From assembly GCF_018977255.1 (NCBI RefSeq), contig NW_024704742.1, positions 47,246,001-47,310,000 of the forward strand: a stretch of DNA of 64,000 bases. The letters are read 5' to 3'. This stretch comes from Callorhinchus milii (Eukaryota). The translations under genes were made by a program, and so were the position numbers. The stretch's first letter is position 1. Every line of letters begins with the position of its first letter. This document shows positions 33,214 to 42,617 of this stretch, in pieces. The notes beneath the pieces are model-generated. The model saw only the letters and a program-made list of their open reading frames with translations, did not search any database and had not been told where the DNA came from.

Positions 33214-35774
33214 ATATCTAATCCCTCCTGCTGTAGCTCTCTTCCCGTTGCTCTCTATGCTGCTCAGGCAGGAAGAGAGCTGGAGTGATTCAGTTGTGAA
33301 AACTGACATGTGACGTACCCAGAAAAGGCAGGACTTTTGACAGTTGCTTACAAAGGTCGGCGAGCTGATGAGCAATGAGAAGAGAGCAGGACTGTTCCAG
33401 GAGTTACGAGGCAGCGCGGAGAGCGACTAGTGGGCCTGGGTGCTAATTGGGTGGACCCAGCAGCCAGTGTATATATTACCAGGCTCTTGGACTGTAAGGG
33501 CAGTATAGCCAAGGACAGTCCTGTATTTTATTATGCCCCACTTATACCTCAGCTGAGATTGACTATCTGCAGACCCAGCAGGGATGGTTAAGCACCTAAA
33601 ATTGCACTGGAGGAAGTTCTCTACACTAGTTTTAAATAACCTTTATTCTGAGCACTGCAACTACTGGCTCTTGCAATGCACAACGACTGATGTCAGCAGC
33701 AGGACAAAATGTTTGAGAATTTAAAACCACTTTGAAACTATAAAGGGAGTGCTGCAATGAAACCAACGTAACTGATAGATTACTGACTAAGGCTTGATCT
33801 GAAAATTGCATCTCCCTAAGTATTGTATTTATAATTCCCCAAATTATTAGTTGGGTGACTATCACTAAGAGTTACCACACTAACTCAGTGCGGTGTTTAC
33901 ACCTGTGTTTATTGTTGCCTGTTGATAGAAATCGGAATGCATCTAACAGACATCGAGTGGAAGAAATCTGACCTTCACAATATTTTATAACTGTTGAATT
34001 GTTCCAATGTAACTACAGTGTTCTGTCCAGCTCACTGGTGTGTCCAAACAGCTCCTCTGTGGCACCTACTAAATATGTTCTCTCTCAAACTCCAGACCAC
34101 AGGAATATGCTTCTTCTCAAAAACTGCTGCGTAAACGTCAGGTACTTTACAGTTGGAACTTATAAATCGTAGCTAATGATGCATTTTAGCCATTTAAATT
34201 TTTAAATCATGTAATCTTTTAACATTCTTTCACTTTTTACAGGCTTCAGATCAATCATTTGAACTCGCTGTAAAGAAAATGTTAACTATTTTCTGTGATT
34301 CCATTAATACATATTTTTGAAATTGAGGTGAGTGGCTAGAAAATGCTCAGATTTTTGCACACAAGAGATCTGAAGAAACAAATTGATTTAATAATAGCAA
34401 CTCAGTTACCAAAAGGAAAGGTTGGGTGCAACTCAGTATCTCAGTATTTGGGAGTTGAAATCTATGACATTTTCTTGCAGATTCAAAGTGCTAATTATCC
34501 TTGAATCCATTAAGAAATAGACCATCTCTCACCTCTTGGTATTAGCAAAAGCCTCCATTAGCTTTGAAGATTGTTTTATTTATTAGTTTAATAATATTGT
34601 CATTCAATCTATGATTGTGGGACACTGCTATGCACAATTGGCTGCTACGTTTCACCCACAAAATATACAGTCAATTCACTTTACAGTATATACTGTGAAG
34701 CGCTTTGGGACGTCTCAACAACGTGATAAGGCACTATATCAAATACAAGTATCATTATTATATCACATTCAATATATCAAACTCAGTATATTCCCATCCT
34801 TCTGGAGTTTCTTTCCAAACCTTTTGCTTTACCATGAACACTCTGAAGGTCCAGTGAATTGATTAGCAACTCCCATTTTAAATCAGCATCCCCATAAACA
34901 GCACCAGTGGAAAGATCCTGCTGATCACATCCATAGCGCTCTTCAACCACCTACCCAATTGGCTGCCGCGTTTCACCTACAAGATACAGTCAATCCACTT
35001 TACAGTATAGTCTGTGAAGCGCTTCGAGACGTCTCAATGACGTGATAAGACGCTGTATCAAATCAAGGATTATTATTATTATTACCTTATCTGTTGCATC
35101 AGTGTGGCTTTTTCATAAGCCTCGTTAAGAATTCCAGTTGCTGTCAAAACTGCTCGTTTGTGCTGTGTAACTGGTATTTTTGTGGTACAGCCTCATTGAA
35201 TCATTTGCCCACAATAGTCACTATGCTTTACCATAAATCCTTTGAGAGACTTCAAAATGTTTCAATGATGTGATAAAGCACTATATCAAATGCAAGGATT
35301 ATTCTATCTAGTTTTTGTCCAGAGCAGATTTTCCAAGGTTATATTCAAATCTCCAATGAAGTGACTGTGACCTCATCTCAATCCTGTTTTCATGTATTTT
35401 ATTTTCACTCCTGTTAAGGAAAATTTATTTATTAGATTTTGAGCTTGTCCAACGGTAAGTCACTGCCAAGAGAGAAATTGTGCACCCAGATGTTCCCATC
35501 TATAATGTGGCATTATATATGCTACAATTGGTCTTTGACTTCTGCACTCCTAGACTAAGTAGAGAATAAAACCATTTTATTTCCAGATTGATATCCCATC
35601 ACCCCTGCTGAAAGTTGTGTAAAATGGCCAGAATCTCTGGAATTGGATCCTGGTATGTGTCGGTATTGTCAGAACATTGGGGGAAGGATCACGCTTAATG
35701 TCTCGAACACTGTCTGCTTTTTTTGCAATTAATACCACACTAGAGAACAAGTCGATTATCCTTTTGAAATTTGC

Positions 35775-35844
35775 TACATGTATGAGGATGATACTCAAAT
35801 CTATCTCTCTGCCTCCACCCTCGACTCCAGTTCCACTGCTGTCC
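35775..35844 (+). mobile_element. Left half of an older L2 interrupted by the intact L2
   Basis: Translates as MYEDDTQIYLSASTLDSSSTAV (RT YADD region); continues at 40644. Confidence 0.85.
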
Positions 35845-36988
35845 CAGTCGGGGAGCGGCAGCAGGACAGCGCGGGGAGGAGCCTGGGCCTACTGACCCAG
35901 GTACTTAAACTCGACGCCGGAGCGAGTGCAGCCAGTCGGGGAGCGGCAGCAGGACAGCGCGGGGAGGAGCCTGGGCCTACTGACCCAGGTACTTAAACTC
36001 GACGCCGGAGCGAGTGCAGCCAGTCGGGGAGCGGCAGCAGGACAGCGCGGGGAGGAGCCTGGGCCTACTGACCCAGGTACTTAAACTCGACGCCGGAGCG
36101 AGTGCAGCCAGTCGGGGAGCGGCAGCAGGACAGCGCGGGGAGGAGCCTGGGCCTACTGACCCAGGTACTTAAACTCGACGCCGGAGCGAGTGCAGCCAGT
36201 CGGGGAGCGGCAGCAGGACAGCGCGGGGAGGAGCCTGGGCCTACTGACCCAGGTACTTAAACTCGACGCCGGAGCGAGTGCAGCCAGTCGGGGAGCGGCA
36301 GCAGGACAGCGCGGGGAGGAGCCTGGGCCTACTGACCCAGGTACTTAAACTCGACGCCGGAGCGAGTGCAGCCAGTCGGGGAGCGGCAGCAGGACAGCGC
36401 GGGGAGGAGCCTGGGCCTACTGACCCAGGTACTTAAACTCGACGCCGGAGCGAGTGCAGCCAGTCGGGGAGCGGCAGCAGGACAGCGCGGGGAGGAGCCT
36501 GGGCCTACTGACCCAGGTACTTAAACTCGACGCCGGAGCGAGTGCAGCCAGTCGGGGAGCGGCAGCAGGACAGCGCGGGGAGGAGCCTGGGCCTACTGAC
36601 CCAGGTACTTAAACTCGACGCCGGAGCGAGTGCAGCCAGTCGGGGAGCGGCAGCAGGACAGCGCGGGGAGGAGCCTGGGCCTACTGACCCAGGTACTTAA
36701 ACTCGACGCCGGAGCGAGTGCAGCCAGTCGGGGAGCGGCAGCAGGACAGCGCGGGGAGGAGCCTGGGCCTACTGACCCAGGTACTTAAACTCGACGCCGG
36801 AGCGAGTGCAGCCAGTCGGGGAGCGGCAGCAGGACAGCGCGGGGAGGAGCCTGGGCCTACTGACCCAGGTACTTAAACTCGACGCCGGAGCGAGTGCAGC
36901 CAGTCGGGGAGCGGCAGCAGGACAGCGCGGGGAGGAGCCTGGGCCTACTGACCCAGGTACTTAAACTCGACGCCGGAGCGAGTGCAGC
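35845..36988 (+). repeat. 13 identical 88-bp GC/CpG-rich tandem monomers (LINE 5' UTR)
   Basis: Unit cagtcggggagcggcagcaggacagcgcggggaggagcctgggcctactgacccaggtacttaaactcgacgccggagcgagtgcagc; period 88; 8 CpG per unit. Confidence 0.97.
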
Positions 36989-36990
36989 TA

Positions 36991-37040
36991 GGGGCAGTGG
37001 AGGGAGGTGTGGGGGCGGAGCGGGGGAACTGCGACGTCAT
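36991..37040 (+). promoter_or_regulatory. Promoter-like block in the LINE 5' UTR: G4-capable tract, GC box, CRE-like site
   Basis: GGGG-7-GGG-6-GGGGG-6-GGGGG (36991-37026), GGGGCGGAG, GACGTCA (37033-37039). Confidence 0.45.
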
Positions 37041-37071
37041 AGATTAGTTTTCAGGTGAGTGCGCGCGCACA

Positions 37072-37108
<37 letters not shown>

Positions 37109-37234
37109 CTCTGCGCCCCCCCCCCCCCCAGGGCTCACATCAGAGCCCACTATGGTCCTGTTGGGTTCGATGCCCCAATCTGCGGGATAATGCCATCCAC
37201 CTGACCGCTCGCTCCCGGTCCCCGCGTGCGCACT

Positions 37235-40200
37235 ATGGCTGCCGCTTTGACCCGAGCCCCCTCACCCCCTCCCTCCCTCCCCCCTCCTCTCTCCCCCCAA
37301 ACCCTCCCCCCTCTGCATCTCTCCCGCTCTCTCCTCCTCTCTCTCCGTCCCTCTCGTCTTCTATCCCCACTTGACCCTCCCACAACCTCCCTCTGTTCCA
37401 GTCTGGGAATCCTCCGCCGGGCTCACCGTGGCACTCGGCGTTGGCTGTCCAGCAGCAGCCACACCGACTGCCCCATTCCCCACCACTCTCGCCAGCCACC
37501 CCGGACACAGACCCGGGGAGTCAACCTCTCCTCCCTCATCCCCATCTCCCCCACCCCTGCCTCACAACCTGGACCCCCCTCCCCTCCCACACACCCTTCT
37601 GTCAACCGCTCCCTCCACATCGGACTGCAAAATGTCCGCTCCCTCTGCAACAAGGCCCTGGTCATCAACGATCTCATCCTTGATGAGAACGTTGATATCA
37701 TGGCCTTGACAGAAACGTGGCTCACCCCAGGCGACACCTTCCCCCTCACGGAGGCCACGCCACCCGGCTACACCTCCCACCACATCCCCCGCCCCAACCG
37801 CCGTGGCGGTGGTGTTGCCCTTATCTCAAGGACACCACTTGCCCTATCCCCCTACTCCACTGGCTCTTTCCCCTCCTTCGAGCACCTCACCCTCTCCCAC
37901 CCCTCATTCCTCTCCCTTAAAATCCTCCTCCTCTACCGGCCCCCTAAAACCTCTCCCACCTTCATCTCTGACATTTCAACACTCCTCACATCTCTTTGCC
38001 TCTGCTCCGATCGCCTCATCATCCTGGGCGACTTTAACCTACACTTCACCCCCTCCTGCTCCATCTCCACAGACTTCTCTTCCCTGCTCTCCTCACTCAA
38101 CCTTTCCCTACACATAAACTCCCCCACTCACAGTCACGGCCACCCACTCGATTTGGTGATCACCCGGGGCCTCAGTGTCTCGGATGTCACTATTACCGAC
38201 AAGGCCATCTCCGACCACTACTTCATCTCCTTCACCACCTCCACCCCCCTCCCCACCTCCACCAGACCCACCACCATCTTCTACCGCCCTTGGAAGAAGT
38301 TACCCCCACAATCCCTAACCGATGCCTTGGAGTCCTCTGAACTCCTCTCCCTCTGGCCTTCAACCCTCACCGACCCCTCTTCTCCTCTCTCCCTCCTCCA
38401 CAATATCCTCTCCTCCACACTCGATACTCTTGCCCCCATCACTTCCCGCACTGTCTCCTACTCCCGCTCCTCCCCCTGGTACACCACCCACCTCCGCTCA
38501 CTGAAATGCCAGGTGCGGGCTGCTGAGCGCACCTTTGTCAAATCCGGCTTAACGGTCCACCGACAAATCTGGCTGGACCTCCTCAAAATTTACCGCTCCA
38601 CTCTAGCCTCGGCCAAGTCGTCCTTCTACTCCAGGATAATCCTGGAGGCGAAGAACAACCCCAGGCTACTGTTTTCCACCACATCCCGACTCCTCCGTCC
38701 CCCCCGCCACCCCGCGCAGGTCATCTCCTCCAACCTTCACTGCGAGGAGATGCTGGATTTCCTTGAATCCAAGATCAAGGGAATCCGCTCCGCGGTCACT
38801 TCCCCTCCAACTTCCACCCACCACCCACCCCTTCCCTCCCACACTCCGACTCCTACCCATCCTCCCCTACACACCTTCGTACCCGTTTCCCCACCCTCTG
38901 TCACTGAACTCATCCTATCCCTAAAACCAACCACCTGCTCCCTTGACCCCATCCCCACTCCACTCCTTATCTCCCAGCTCCATTTTCTTGCCCCACACAT
39001 CACTGACATCATAAACCTGTCCCTCTCCTCTGGCTCTGTCCCCATTCCATTAAAAACTGCCATCATCACGCCCACCCTGAAAAAACCCTCCCTTGATGCG
39101 TCGCAGCTATCAAGCTACCGGCCCATCTCCAACCTCCCCTTTCTCTCCAAGGTCTTGGAAAGAGTTGTCGCCTCCCAACTGCGCTCTTTCCTCTCCACCC
39201 ATTCTCTTTTTGAACCCCTTCAGTCAGGTTTCCGTGCTGCTCATAGCACAGAAACTGCCCTGGTCAAGGTCACCAATGATATCCTGACCATCTGTGACCA
39301 GGGCTCCCTCTGTCTCCTCGTCCTCCTCGACCTATCGGCAGCATTCGATACGGTCGACCACACTATCCTACTCCACCGCTTGTCCTCCCACCTCAACCTT
39401 CAAGGCACTGTCCTTGAATGGTTTAGGTCGTACCTTTCTCACCGTCTTCACTTCGTCTCAACGAATGGCTTCTCCTCCACCCCCCGTACTGTCTCATGTG
39501 GTGTCCCTCAGGGCTCTGTCCTCGGTCCCCTCCTCTTCACCCTCTATATGCTCCCCCTTGGTGACATCATCCGCAAACATGGGGTTAACTTCCACATGTA
39601 TGCGGATGACACCCAACTCTACCTTTCCTCCTCTACTCTCAACTCCACGACCACCGATGTCCTGACAGCCTGCCTGTCCGACATCGAGTCCTGGACGAGA
39701 GACAACTTTCTTCAGCTCAACGTGCAAAAAACCGAGGCCCTCCTGATTGGCTCACGTCAGCGCCTCCGCACCTCAGGCGCTGACACCATCAGCATCCAAG
39801 GCTGCACTCTCCACCTCTCAAAGCCAGTCAGGAACCTCGGCGTTTTGTTCGACCCTGAGCTGTCCTTTCTCCCTCACATCCGCACCACAACTGGCACCGC
39901 CTTCCATCACCTCCGGAATATCGCCAGATTACGGCACTACCTCACCCCTCACGCTGCTGAAACCCTGGTTCACGCCTTTGTCACCTCAAGGCTGGACTAT
40001 GGGAACTCTCTCCTCGCCGGCCTTCCCGCCACCTCCCTCCACAAGCTGCAGGTCATTCAGAACTCTGCAGCTCGTGTACTGTCCCGCACCAGGCTTCGGG
40101 ACCACATCACTCCCACCCTCGCTCGCCTCCACTGGCTCCCCATCCCCCAGAGGATTGATTTCAAGATCCTCATCCTCACCTACAAGGCCATTCACGGCCT

Positions 40201-40495
40201 TGCTCCCTCCTACCTCTCCAACCTACTATCCCCCTACCTACCTGCCCGTACCCTCCGTTCCTCTGGCTCCGGTCTGCTCCACGTCCCCCGCCCCAACCGC
40301 CCTACTATCGGTGGTCGGGCCTTCAGCCTCTCAGCCCCGAGGCTCTGGAACTCCATCCCCCAGTGCCTTCGCCTTGCTTCCTCCCTTTCCTCCTTCAAGG
40401 CCGGTCTCAAAACCTTTCTCTTTGACCGTGCCTTCAGCTCCCCTCTCGACTCTCTTCCTCCTCCTCGCTCCCTCCCTTCCCTCCCCTCACCCTGA
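37235..40495 (+). CDS. L2 LINE polyprotein (APE endonuclease + reverse transcriptase), 1086 aa from the first in-frame ATG
   Basis: APE motifs LQNVRSL, ALTETWL, RRGGGVA, YRPP, ILGDFN, SDH; RT motifs [40 protein letters not shown]; no stops; ATG in ACTATGG Kozak context (track starts at GTG 37226). Confidence 0.97.
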
Positions 40496-40577
40496 CCATT
40501 TCCCCCTCCTCTCTCCCTCCCTTCCCTCCCCTCACCCTGACCATTTCCCCCCTGCTCGGGTCATGACCCAACTGTGC

Positions 40578-40613
40578 AGCGCCTTGGGACGTCCTCCTGA
40601 CGTGAAAGGCGCT
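40578..40613 (+). other. L2 3' terminal stem-loop (probable RT recognition signal)
   Basis: AGCGCCTT-ggg-ACGTC-ctcct-GACGT-ga-AAGGCGCT; variants close most LINE and SINE tails in the window. Confidence 0.8.
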
Positions 40614-40643
40614 CTATAAATGGAATCTTGTTGTTGTTGTTGT

Positions 40644-41537
40644 TGTCCTGAATGTCTGTCAGACATCAAGTCCTGGACGAGAGCTAATTTTCTTCAGTTC
40701 AGGGTCAGCAAGACCGAGGCTTTCCTGATTGGCTCCTGTCAGCGCCTCTTCACCTCGGGCGCTGACAGCATCACCATCCATGGATACACACTGCACCAGT
40801 CCAGAACCTTGGCGTCTTGGTTGAACCTCAATTGTCCTTCCTACCTCACATCGGTGCCGTGTCCCGCTCTGCCTTCCCCCAGCTCTGTAAAATCGCCCGG
40901 CTCCACCACTGTCTCACACCACAGGCGGCAGATACCCTCATACATGCTTTCATAACATCCAGGCTCAACTAAACAAACTCCCTGCTTGTCGGCTTCCCCA
41001 ACTCCTCCCTCCATAGGCTGCAGCCCGTGTCCTCTCCCACACTATGCTCCGTGACCCTATCGCCCCCATCCTCGCCCGACTCCACTAGTTTCCCATCACA
41101 CAGAGGATACAGTTCAAGATCCTAGTCCTCACCTTCAAAGCCCTCCATGGCCTTGCTACCCCCTCATCTCTGCCACCTCCTAACCCCCTGCCAACCTGCT
41201 CGCTCCCTCTGCTCAGTGGGATTTGACCTGCTTAAAGTCTATAGCCTCGCCTGCACCACCATTGGCGGGCAGGCCTTCTATTCACCTTGCCCCCACCCTC
41301 TGGAACTCCATCCCGCAGTCCTTCCTCCTCGCCCCCTCCCTTGCCTCCTTCAAGACCCATCTCAAGACCCTCCTCTTCGACCGTGCCTTCAATCACCTGC
41401 ATTCTCCCCTCCCACCCGCTCTCCACCCTCCCCGATCCTGACCCCCCCCAGCTCAGGTCCGAAACACTGATTGACCAGCGCCTTGGGACGTCCTCCCAAC
41501 GTGAGAGGCGCTTTACAAATGTAATTTTGTTGTTGTT
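40644..41537 (+). mobile_element. Right half of the interrupted older L2, through its 3' tail
   Basis: ECLSDIKSWTRANFLQ..KTEAFLIGS directly continues 35775-35844; ends in stem-loop and (TTG)n. Confidence 0.9.
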
Positions 41538-42617
41538 GCTTCTCTTGGGCAAGCCTCTCCACCAATTTATATTCTAGCATTTAGACATTGCTGGGTTGTT
41601 TACAAATGGCACCAGCAAAGCTGACAGTGATATGTATGAGGTGGTTTGTTGCCAGGGGTAACCTGTAGTTTTGTTCAAGGTTGTAATGGCACCAATCTGG
41701 TGGTGAGACACTTTGATGATACGTGTGACATACATGAGCAAGAAGGGAATGGAGGGGGTAGAGAGAGGGATTTGGATTGGGTGGAGATTCCTCCTGTGAA
41801 GTACAAACAGCATAGACTAGCTGTGCTGAATGGCCTGTTTCCGTGCTGTACACTCTATTGCATGTGATACTATATGATATTGCCTCAGATTGGGATGGTG
41901 AGAGAATTAGAAAAATGTCTGGTCTGACTACGACATGCTGCAGCCTTGTTTAAGACCAGTGACCAATGAAGTGGTATTGCTGTTGATGGCCTGTGGGTCT
42001 CTTTACTCACCTTTGTGAAATGTATGACTGAGAAATGTTTGTCCATGATTCTAAAATTGCTGTTCATTTGATGTAAATCAGGCTGTTTCTAGCACTTCTG
42101 CTCTATCAGTTGAGTGAGTCATACAGCAGCAAGATTGGAAGCTGGTGATGGAAAGCTGCTTTAAGCATTGATGATTCCTAGATTTAATTTTAATTTTAAA
42201 TTTTGGTAAATGAATATTTGTAACTGCCAATGAAGCTGTAACCTTGAATGTGGCTTACAGATTTCCAGGAAATGATTCACAAATACAATTCACAAATCAT
42301 ATTCAGATGTTTTGTTTCCTATTAGGTTACCACACTCCCAAAGAATATTAATTGTTGTGGTCGGTTAACTTCCTCAACAGTAATTTAGTCAACAGGTTAA
42401 TACCTAGCATCTGTAGACTCTTTATATAGTTTTCTTACCTTGGGTTAATGGGAGGGTGACTAAGAAAAACATCTGGTCTGACTACAATACTCTGCAGCCT
42501 TGTTTAATGCTGTGTATTCTCAAGCAGACATCATCTTATCTGGATCAGCTGTTCAGGGGGGCATTGCTGATGACAAACCAGGCAGCCTTGACTGCTGCCT
42601 AGGACCTGGCTACTACC

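Follow-up and report, generated by a model that had tools for sequence, protein, structure and literature searches.

The window analyzed here is a stretch of 64,000 nucleotides from Callorhinchus milii (assembly GCF_018977255.1, contig NW_024704742.1, positions 47,246,001 to 47,310,000 of the forward strand). It contains an L2-like long interspersed nuclear element (LINE), 4.8 kb in all, in which a tandem array of 88-bp units (monomers) is followed by a non-repeated tether, a single endonuclease/reverse-transcriptase open reading frame (ORF), a 3' untranslated region (UTR), and a (TTG)n tail (Table 1). An earlier note on this DNA had described the element as an intact single-ORF L2 LINE headed by 13 identical CpG-rich monomers, and had proposed that the monomers form a self-renewing promoter whose whole-number copy count would be explained by transcription or 5' processing in register with the unit boundary. 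We confirmed that the ORF is intact. Its product begins with approximately 130 Pro/Ser-rich residues and contains two Pfam domains, Exo_endo_phos (amino acids 143 to 338) and RVT_1 (amino acids 626 to 879), which place an apurinic-type endonuclease at approximately 37631-38218 and a reverse transcriptase at approximately 39080-39841; the Pfam scan of this protein found no third domain. Because the gap between the array and the ATG is only 246 bases long and contains no ORF1, an ORF1 upstream of the APE-RT (apurinic-type endonuclease and reverse transcriptase) frame is excluded, as the earlier note had stated.

The element lies within an older related LINE that is 68 to 75% identical to it and that is continuous across the empty insertion site. 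Since a target site duplication (TSD) flanks the whole element and the older host copy runs through the empty site, the array must be inside the insertion. The first base of the first unit is also the first inserted base because TGTCC/TCC is found on both sides. Thus, the array came with the LINE, beginning immediately after TGTCC as had been claimed, and is part of the element rather than of the flanking DNA.

Table 1. Features of the LINE insertion and its surroundings in the 64-kb window.
Feature	Position	Strand	Basis
Older 5'-truncated related LINE, upstream part	35768..35844	+	75% identical to new element 39587-39662
5' TSD copy (TGTCC; certain core TCC)	35840..35844	+	Sequence; host copy continuous over empty site
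13 identical 88-bp monomers forming the element 5' end	35845..36988	+	Tandem Repeats Finder and core count
Non-repeated tether from array to ORF, 246 bases	36989..37234	+	Sequence
Single ORF, 1086 codons	37235..40495	+	ATG at 37235, stop ends at 40495, open
3' UTR with stem-loop at ~40578-40613	40496..40627	+	Fold compared with shuffles
(TTG)6 microsatellite tail	40628..40645	+	Sequence
3' TSD copy (TG shared with tail, then TCC)	40644..40648	+	Sequence; empty-site comparison
Older related LINE, downstream part	40653..41538	+	68% identical to new element 39671-40639

The array is perfectly regular. Tandem Repeats Finder reports a repeat at 35844-36988 with a period of 88, 13.0 copies, 100% matches, 0 indels, and a score of 2290, which bears out the earlier count of 13 units without substitutions. 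A 46-nt core of the unit has 13 matches in the window, all located in the array and all with 0 mismatches, whereas 0 would be expected by chance (100 shuffles of the 64-kb window). The unit, CAGTCGG...GTGCAGC, has a GC content of 0.68 and contains 8 CpG dinucleotides (observed/expected ratio, 0.80). It also contains two small inverted repeats, CCTGGG/CCCAGG (unit positions 38-43 and 52-57, with a spacer of 8) and ACTCG/CGAGT (65-69 and 79-83, with a spacer of 9), and a sole AT-rich block, TACTTAAA, at unit positions 58-65. The CpG count, the hairpins, and the AT-rich motif were all located as originally described.

We searched the 991.5-Mb assembly (1762 contigs) for other copies. A two-unit query gave 115 matches in 40 scored loci, drawn from 402 first-look candidates, and from these we read 20 of the 21 other plus-strand loci and the flanks of 5 of the 18 minus-strand loci. 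An array-independent search based on the start of the ORF yielded 1695 candidates, of which 40 were scored; these included 19 new loci, 10 of which were read. All 20 plus-strand array loci run straight into the same tether and body, at 97.0 to 99.6% identity to the window copy. The 3' end is reached in 18 of them; L031 aligned over 1.8 kb only, and L047 has an internal gap of approximately 600 bases. The five readable minus-strand loci likewise consist of an array followed by the tether. Among the 10 copies selected by ORF-start similarity, seven have one unit, one has two, one has three, and one has a partial unit. Other full-length copies therefore carry units as well (at least one whole unit in 9 of 10, a partial one in the tenth), and no full-length copy without unit sequence was found among these 10.

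The same association is seen on contig C1, where the set of exact matches is complete. Exact-core units occur at 29 C1 loci, and an exact tether anchor lies at the expected distance in 21 of these; the remaining eight all have a slightly diverged tether and belong to an older subfamily. One additional C1 tether, at L069, carries a 5'-cut unit. Across the 44 loci that we read in total, the 88-mer was never observed apart from the LINE: every one continues into the same tether or L2 body, with the same layout of monomers, unique tether, and coding region. Arrays thus lie 5' of this LINE at all 44 loci read and at all 29 C1 exact-core loci. The 88-bp array is a feature of the family and not a local accident. 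Allowing up to 2 mismatches, we counted 187 copies of a 35-nt tether anchor, 501 unit cores, and 276 unit-unit junctions genome-wide. The 501 cores and 276 junctions imply approximately 225 arrays with a mean of approximately 2.2 units. The 88-mer can therefore serve as an annotation marker for full-length young copies, of which there are about 190 to 225 in the genome.

The family is young. In the 20 plus-strand loci, bodies diverge by 0.4 to 3.0% from the window copy, and of the 20 copies in which the 1086-codon frame could be evaluated (L049 was left out because its anchor failed), 8 have it open, in agreement with the earlier view of a recently active family. Six copies (L031, L032, L038, L042, L044, and L047) stop at codon 157 following single-C losses at four different C runs within the first 350 bases of the ORF; these losses could reflect true mutations or assembly errors in homopolymers. 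Element size in the family ranges from 3.7 to 5.0 kb.

Three features of the element, namely, its single ORF, its 3' stem-loop, and its short-repeat tail, are compatible with the label L2. L2 elements, in which ORF1 is optional, encode a single polyprotein that has a reverse transcriptase and, at its N terminus, an apurinic-type endonuclease; their 3' UTR forms a stem-loop, and their tail consists of short repeats instead of poly(A). The element described here shares both characteristics. Membership in the L1 clade, which is characterized by ORF1, ORF2, and poly(A), was considered and is ruled out by the single ORF and the (TTG)n tail. The nearest public proteins are fish APE-RT proteins of approximately 900 to 1250 amino acids, 43 to 54% identical over the full length, whose names are absent or generic. 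According to an excerpt of a published account (PMC3880073), L2 elements may encode one APE-RT protein without ORF1, and the enzyme depends on its own 3' UTR.

Copies of the element share their 5' end. We read the 5' junctions of 44 independent loci, namely, the window, 19 of L031-L050, 5 minus-strand loci, L051-L060, and L061-L069, counting the duplicate pair L035/L049 once. In 41 of the 44, the element starts within 12 bases, between unit positions -4 and +7, and most starts fall at C1, A2, or G3 of CAGTCGG. Were starts spread evenly over the 88 positions, the chance of finding 41 of 44 in register would be 2.9e-32. The prediction of the earlier note that arrays start in one register is therefore borne out. 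Because full-length LINE insertion copies the RNA to its 5' end, the shared start marks the 5' end of the RNA. In mouse L1, the common 5' truncation point of the first monomer was taken as the start site of the parent, and this agrees with cap analysis of gene expression (CAGE), as an excerpt of the source relates (PMC6454616). Six of the 10 copies that start at A2 have a G just upstream, which is no more than suggestive of a copied cap. Copies starting at the unit/tether junction, which lacks the CAGT motif, are nearly absent, which would fit a need for the initiator.

The exceptions to this register, L048, L055, and L069, start near unit positions 29, 42, and 60, respectively, and look like ordinary 5' truncations or later insertions. 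At L048, the start directly follows the ATT-repeat tail of another element: at approximately 1440-1500 of this locus, the 3' end of another retroposon, with a similar ...AAGGCGCTATATCAAATGCAAAC motif and an (ATT)n tail, adjoins the unit cut at about position 29. This junction may represent an insertion into the array or a truncation beside an older element.

The number of units varies between copies. The loci read contain 1, 2, 3, 4, 5, 6, 7, 8, 10, 11, 13, 14, or 16 units, the longest array being that of L017 (16 units). On C1, counting exact cores only, 17 loci have one unit and 7 have two, and the others have 6, 6, 8, 13, and 14. The window array, with 13 units, is at the long end of the range and atypical compared with the mean of approximately 2.2. 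Long arrays may be as uniform as that of the window: the 14 units of L042 are identical save for the first two bases at the flank junction, and the 10 units of L040 are perfect. Overall, a small number of unit variants (mainly 16A>G, 23C>G, and 84G>T) are combined into mosaic arrays, often in runs of neighboring units; 16G with 84T is the state of the older, mostly single-unit subfamily. We saw no trend by eye between array length and body identity in the 20 plus-strand loci.

Several observations bear on how units are gained. In L036, the two 5'-most units share a 1-base deletion that is found exactly twice genome-wide, both times there. The presence of this private deletion in only the first two units shows that the L036 array gained a unit by duplication at its 5' end. 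Re-copies of the first 6 to 10 bases are found just upstream of the 5' end in L033, L038, L059, L062, and L017, and an inverted re-copy abuts the element start in L031; these short re-copies resemble stuttering by the copying enzyme when it reaches the end of the RNA. One boundary of the repeated segment coincides exactly with the RNA 5' end, and at the other a whole unit adjoins the tether; a duplication mechanism tied to the RNA 5' end would produce such a layout, whereas random internal duplication would do so only rarely. The duplicate pair L035/L049, which is 99.64% identical over 9.9 kb, has 8 units in each copy, a single case that hints that unit number changes with transposition rather than in place. 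Taken together, the L036 duplication, the stutters, the layout, and the L035/L049 pair weakly favor a change in number at transposition. The two loci of this pair (C8:23.92 Mb and C1:18.45 Mb) contain the same insertion and flanks and represent a segmental duplication or a duplicated region of the assembly.

Based on these observations, our best reading is that the 88-bp units are the 5' UTR/promoter region of a young, recently mobile L2-like LINE family. We infer that the shared 5' ends are transcription starts, that the units are promoters, that more units would give more transcription through additive activity (an extrapolation from mouse L1), and that arrays are regrown. The units are likely a stack of promoter modules for RNA polymerase II (Pol II) in which every junction provides a start. 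This arrangement would be a counterpart of the monomers and tether of mouse L1. The sequence GCCAGT spans the unit junction and fits BBCABW, one of the consensus forms of the initiator (the other being YYANWYY). The AT-rich block TACTTAAA lies at -32 to -25 from the A of the CAGTC of the next unit, that is, inside the preceding unit, and this spacing is right for a layout of TATA box and initiator. Because the AT block sits 32 to 25 bases upstream, each junction rebuilds a pair of box and initiator at textbook spacing. Since the RNA 5' end falls at one unit position, Pol II most likely starts at the initiator-like GCCAGT over each unit junction, at the A or G of (C)CAGTCGG. Two tether sites, which we take to be a GC box (GGGGGCGG, 37011-37018) and a cyclic AMP response element (CRE)-like sequence (CGACGTCA, 37032-37039), may contribute downstream signals. 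Starts at different units, combined with occasional duplication of a unit at the 5' end, would generate arrays of 1 to 16 whole units. Single-unit copies have this same start base. In them, the promoter might also work from downstream of the start, through the unit body and tether, as internal LINE promoters do; alternatively, these copies could be end products of multi-unit masters that fired at the last junction.

Several points weigh against this reading. The 5' end of every copy is set by its first unit, which the block TACTTAAA is unable to serve, and the block matches the TATA consensus at only 6 of 8 positions. It is intact in 170 of 170 units (41 loci), but this invariance weighs little because unit diversity is very low. 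Bases of the previous unit are not enriched over chance just upstream of the start (C at -1 in approximately 8 of 44 copies, and two longer matches), so that initiation at internal units is putative. Single units are the commonest class on C1 (17 of 29 loci, exact cores only), which means that a large array is unnecessary for the existence of a copy. The sample of loci is also partial, covering 5 of 18 minus-strand, 20 of 21 plus-strand, and 10 of 19 new ORF-start loci.

We therefore considered whether only the first unit matters. In this case, the element would have an ordinary internal promoter, and its first 88 bases would behave as an unstable GC-rich minisatellite that expands by DNA slippage or unequal exchange, with no effect on transcription. 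In favor of this, single-unit copies are the most frequent class on C1, and duplication at the DNA level would account for the neighboring runs of 16A>G and 23C>G and for the private duplicate of L036; unequal crossing-over is also one accepted model for mouse L1 arrays, according to an excerpt of the source (PMC6454616). However, the repeat consists of whole units from the RNA 5' end to the tether, a placement that random internal duplication would reach in approximately 1 of 88 cases, and each unit recreates the spacing between AT block and initiator. In addition, L035 and L049 kept 8 units each at 0.36% divergence, while copies whose bodies differ by 0.4 to 3.0% from that of the window range from 2 to 14 units. 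We consider this explanation unlikely, although more probable than the two that follow.

A second alternative is that the shared 5' end reflects RNA processing instead of initiation, with a self-cleaving ribozyme or nuclease site in each unit or junction trimming longer transcripts. Site-specific cleavage would also produce sharp 5' ends at one position, and the unit contains one solid hairpin, CCUGGG-8-CCCAGG, which is present in the centroid fold. Hepatitis delta virus (HDV)-like ribozymes trim the 5' ends of R2 and L1Tc. Against this, a search of 35700-37300 with all 4227 Rfam families, at E values up to 10, returned two chance-level matches, neither of which is a ribozyme. A dimer of the unit folds no better than shuffled sequences (z = +1.12; 176 of 200 shuffles equal or better), and only the CCUGGG hairpin is stable in the dimer fold. 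Moreover, efficient cutting at every junction would leave one unit per RNA, but copies with up to 16 units exist. Cleavage is thus very improbable, and of the interpretation offered in the earlier note, linkage, register, and youth of the family stand, while self-cleavage gained no support. The remaining alternative, that the long perfect array is an assembly artefact and the real locus has fewer or more units, is very unlikely. The length of a run of 13 identical 88-bp units is difficult to establish from short reads, and the single-C losses suggest homopolymer errors somewhere in the assembly. Against this, at least 40 loci, each with its own flanks, have arrays, and their unit numbers differ widely; a long read can easily span 1144 bp; and neighboring arrays hold internal variants in fixed order.

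Returning to the reading of units as stacked promoters, we speculated about how such an array could be maintained. Self-renewal is hinted at by the terminal stutters, which are few, and by one private two-unit duplication. The array could be rebuilt by the reverse transcriptase of the element itself, with whole units being added either by re-copying of the first 88 bases at the capped RNA 5' end or through second-strand priming, a possibility that we regard as tentative and rather doubtful. If true, this mechanism would by its nature place the unit boundary at the RNA 5' end, and transposition rather than slow DNA recombination would regenerate the stack of promoters. The stutters and the inverted snap-back would then be failed attempts, and the L036 duplication would be a successful one.

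The organization described here resembles that of rodent L1 elements. As far as the excerpted text of PMC5381506 goes, mouse L1 (L1Md A, Tf, and Gf) and rat L1 have 5' UTRs that open with CpG-rich tandem monomers and continue through a non-repeated tether into the coding region, as in this LINE. As in mouse L1, unit number varies between copies and the 5' end point is shared. The two models for array extension in mouse L1, second-strand priming and unequal crossing-over, are undecided in the excerpted sources (PMC5381506, PMC6454616). The present element is of another LINE lineage than mouse and rat L1: it lacks ORF1 and has a single ORF, and its 3' end carries a stem-loop and a (TTG)n tail in place of poly(A). 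Its unit is 88 bp long, compared with approximately 200 bp in mouse L1 and approximately 650 bp in rat L1. It starts at the unit boundary and thus has whole units, whereas mouse type A starts approximately one third into a monomer. Promoter activity of monomers is proven in mouse L1, while the 88-bp units are candidate promoters. Shorter tandem motifs of 70 to 100 bp, duplicated two- or three-fold, are described for L1 5' UTRs of horse, elephant, opossum, hyrax, and rat in the excerpt of PMC5381506; they are similar to the 88-bp unit in size and position but are fixed at 2 to 3 copies, in contrast to 1 to 16 in this L2-like element. According to the same excerpt, the L1 5' UTRs of the lizard show no tandem duplication, and no such duplication is mentioned in frog or fish.

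Among L2 elements, eel UnaL2 and zebrafish ZfL2-2 have a single ORF like this LINE, which in addition has a 3' stem-loop and a short-repeat tail. A literature search found no description of 5' monomer arrays in UnaL2 or ZfL2-2 (the original UnaL2/ZfL2 papers were outside its reach), nor any of monomer arrays in L2 or CR1 in full-text literature (most subscription papers and Repbase reports were outside its scope). In the telomeric elements HeT-A and TART of Drosophila, a promoter in the upstream repeat drives the start of the next head-to-tail unit. There, the repeat is a whole element at chromosome ends, whereas here it is an 88-bp module inside a dispersed element. Until now, stacked monomer promoters have been characteristic of mouse and rat L1, and the same design apparently arose independently in a single-ORF L2-like LINE of a nonmammalian vertebrate. 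How promoter stacks originate and are kept up despite 5' truncation is not yet settled, according to the excerpted text of PMC6454616. The present case is simpler than that of the mouse, with a near-invariant 88-bp unit, whole units, a sharp start, a small element, and several open frames. This simplicity makes it testable how activity depends on unit number, which unit fires, and how the array changes in one round of retrotransposition.

The tether begins with a G-rich hypervariable segment, followed by a run of 34 A residues (37073-37106) and then a C run, and the lengths of the runs differ between copies. Its internal poly(A) could have been left behind when, long ago, a polyadenylated RNA was captured and became a new 5' end. 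Across 37073-37129 and the corresponding segments of L031-L069, the A run has approximately 8 to 45 or more bases, is sometimes interrupted, and precedes approximately 8 to 27 C residues, with a different length in nearly every copy. The first ~20 tether bases (36989-37010) read TAGGGGCAGTGG..., TAGGGGGAGGGGAC..., CCCGGGGGGGG..., or TCGGCAGTGG... at different loci, and L047 has a partial extra unit at the start of its tether. This hypervariable start may represent the remains of a decayed unit, or else a G-rich tract prone to slippage. The tether also contains splice-site look-alikes, CAG|GTGAGT at 37052-37060 and (C)nAG|G at approximately 37131, 77 bases on, which bracket the A34 and C runs. 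A mini-intron was considered here and rejected: a 31-nt probe for the spliced junction has 0 copies genome-wide, and the older subfamily does not conserve the donor, having GTGCGT, GTACGT, or GTATGT in its place. Collapsed contigs of 60 to 320 bases on this repeat, from four public sequencing runs that are not listed as RNA, likewise have no joint across the interval, although such contigs show neither starts nor strands and are of little use as RNA evidence.

At the other end of the element, the stem-loop of the 3' UTR is formed by GCGCCUUG...AAGGCGC, with an inner ACGUC/GACGU pairing, and has a minimum free energy of -28.8 kcal/mol (z = -1.96; 8 of 200 shuffles fold equally well or better). 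The 3' end was located in 20 of 21 copies examined, and every one of these 20 terminates in a (TTG)n tail; 18 of the tails are pure runs, and those of L034 and L050 have one interruption each. The older LINE that hosts the insertion ends in its own stem-loop and TTG tail, and related LINE sequence lies directly upstream of L038 and L040 as well. Lastly, a 45-bp unit is repeated 2.2 times (96% matches) at 40455-40551, spanning the end of the ORF and its stop codon, and BLAST shows that this internal repeat is also present in other copies of the family.

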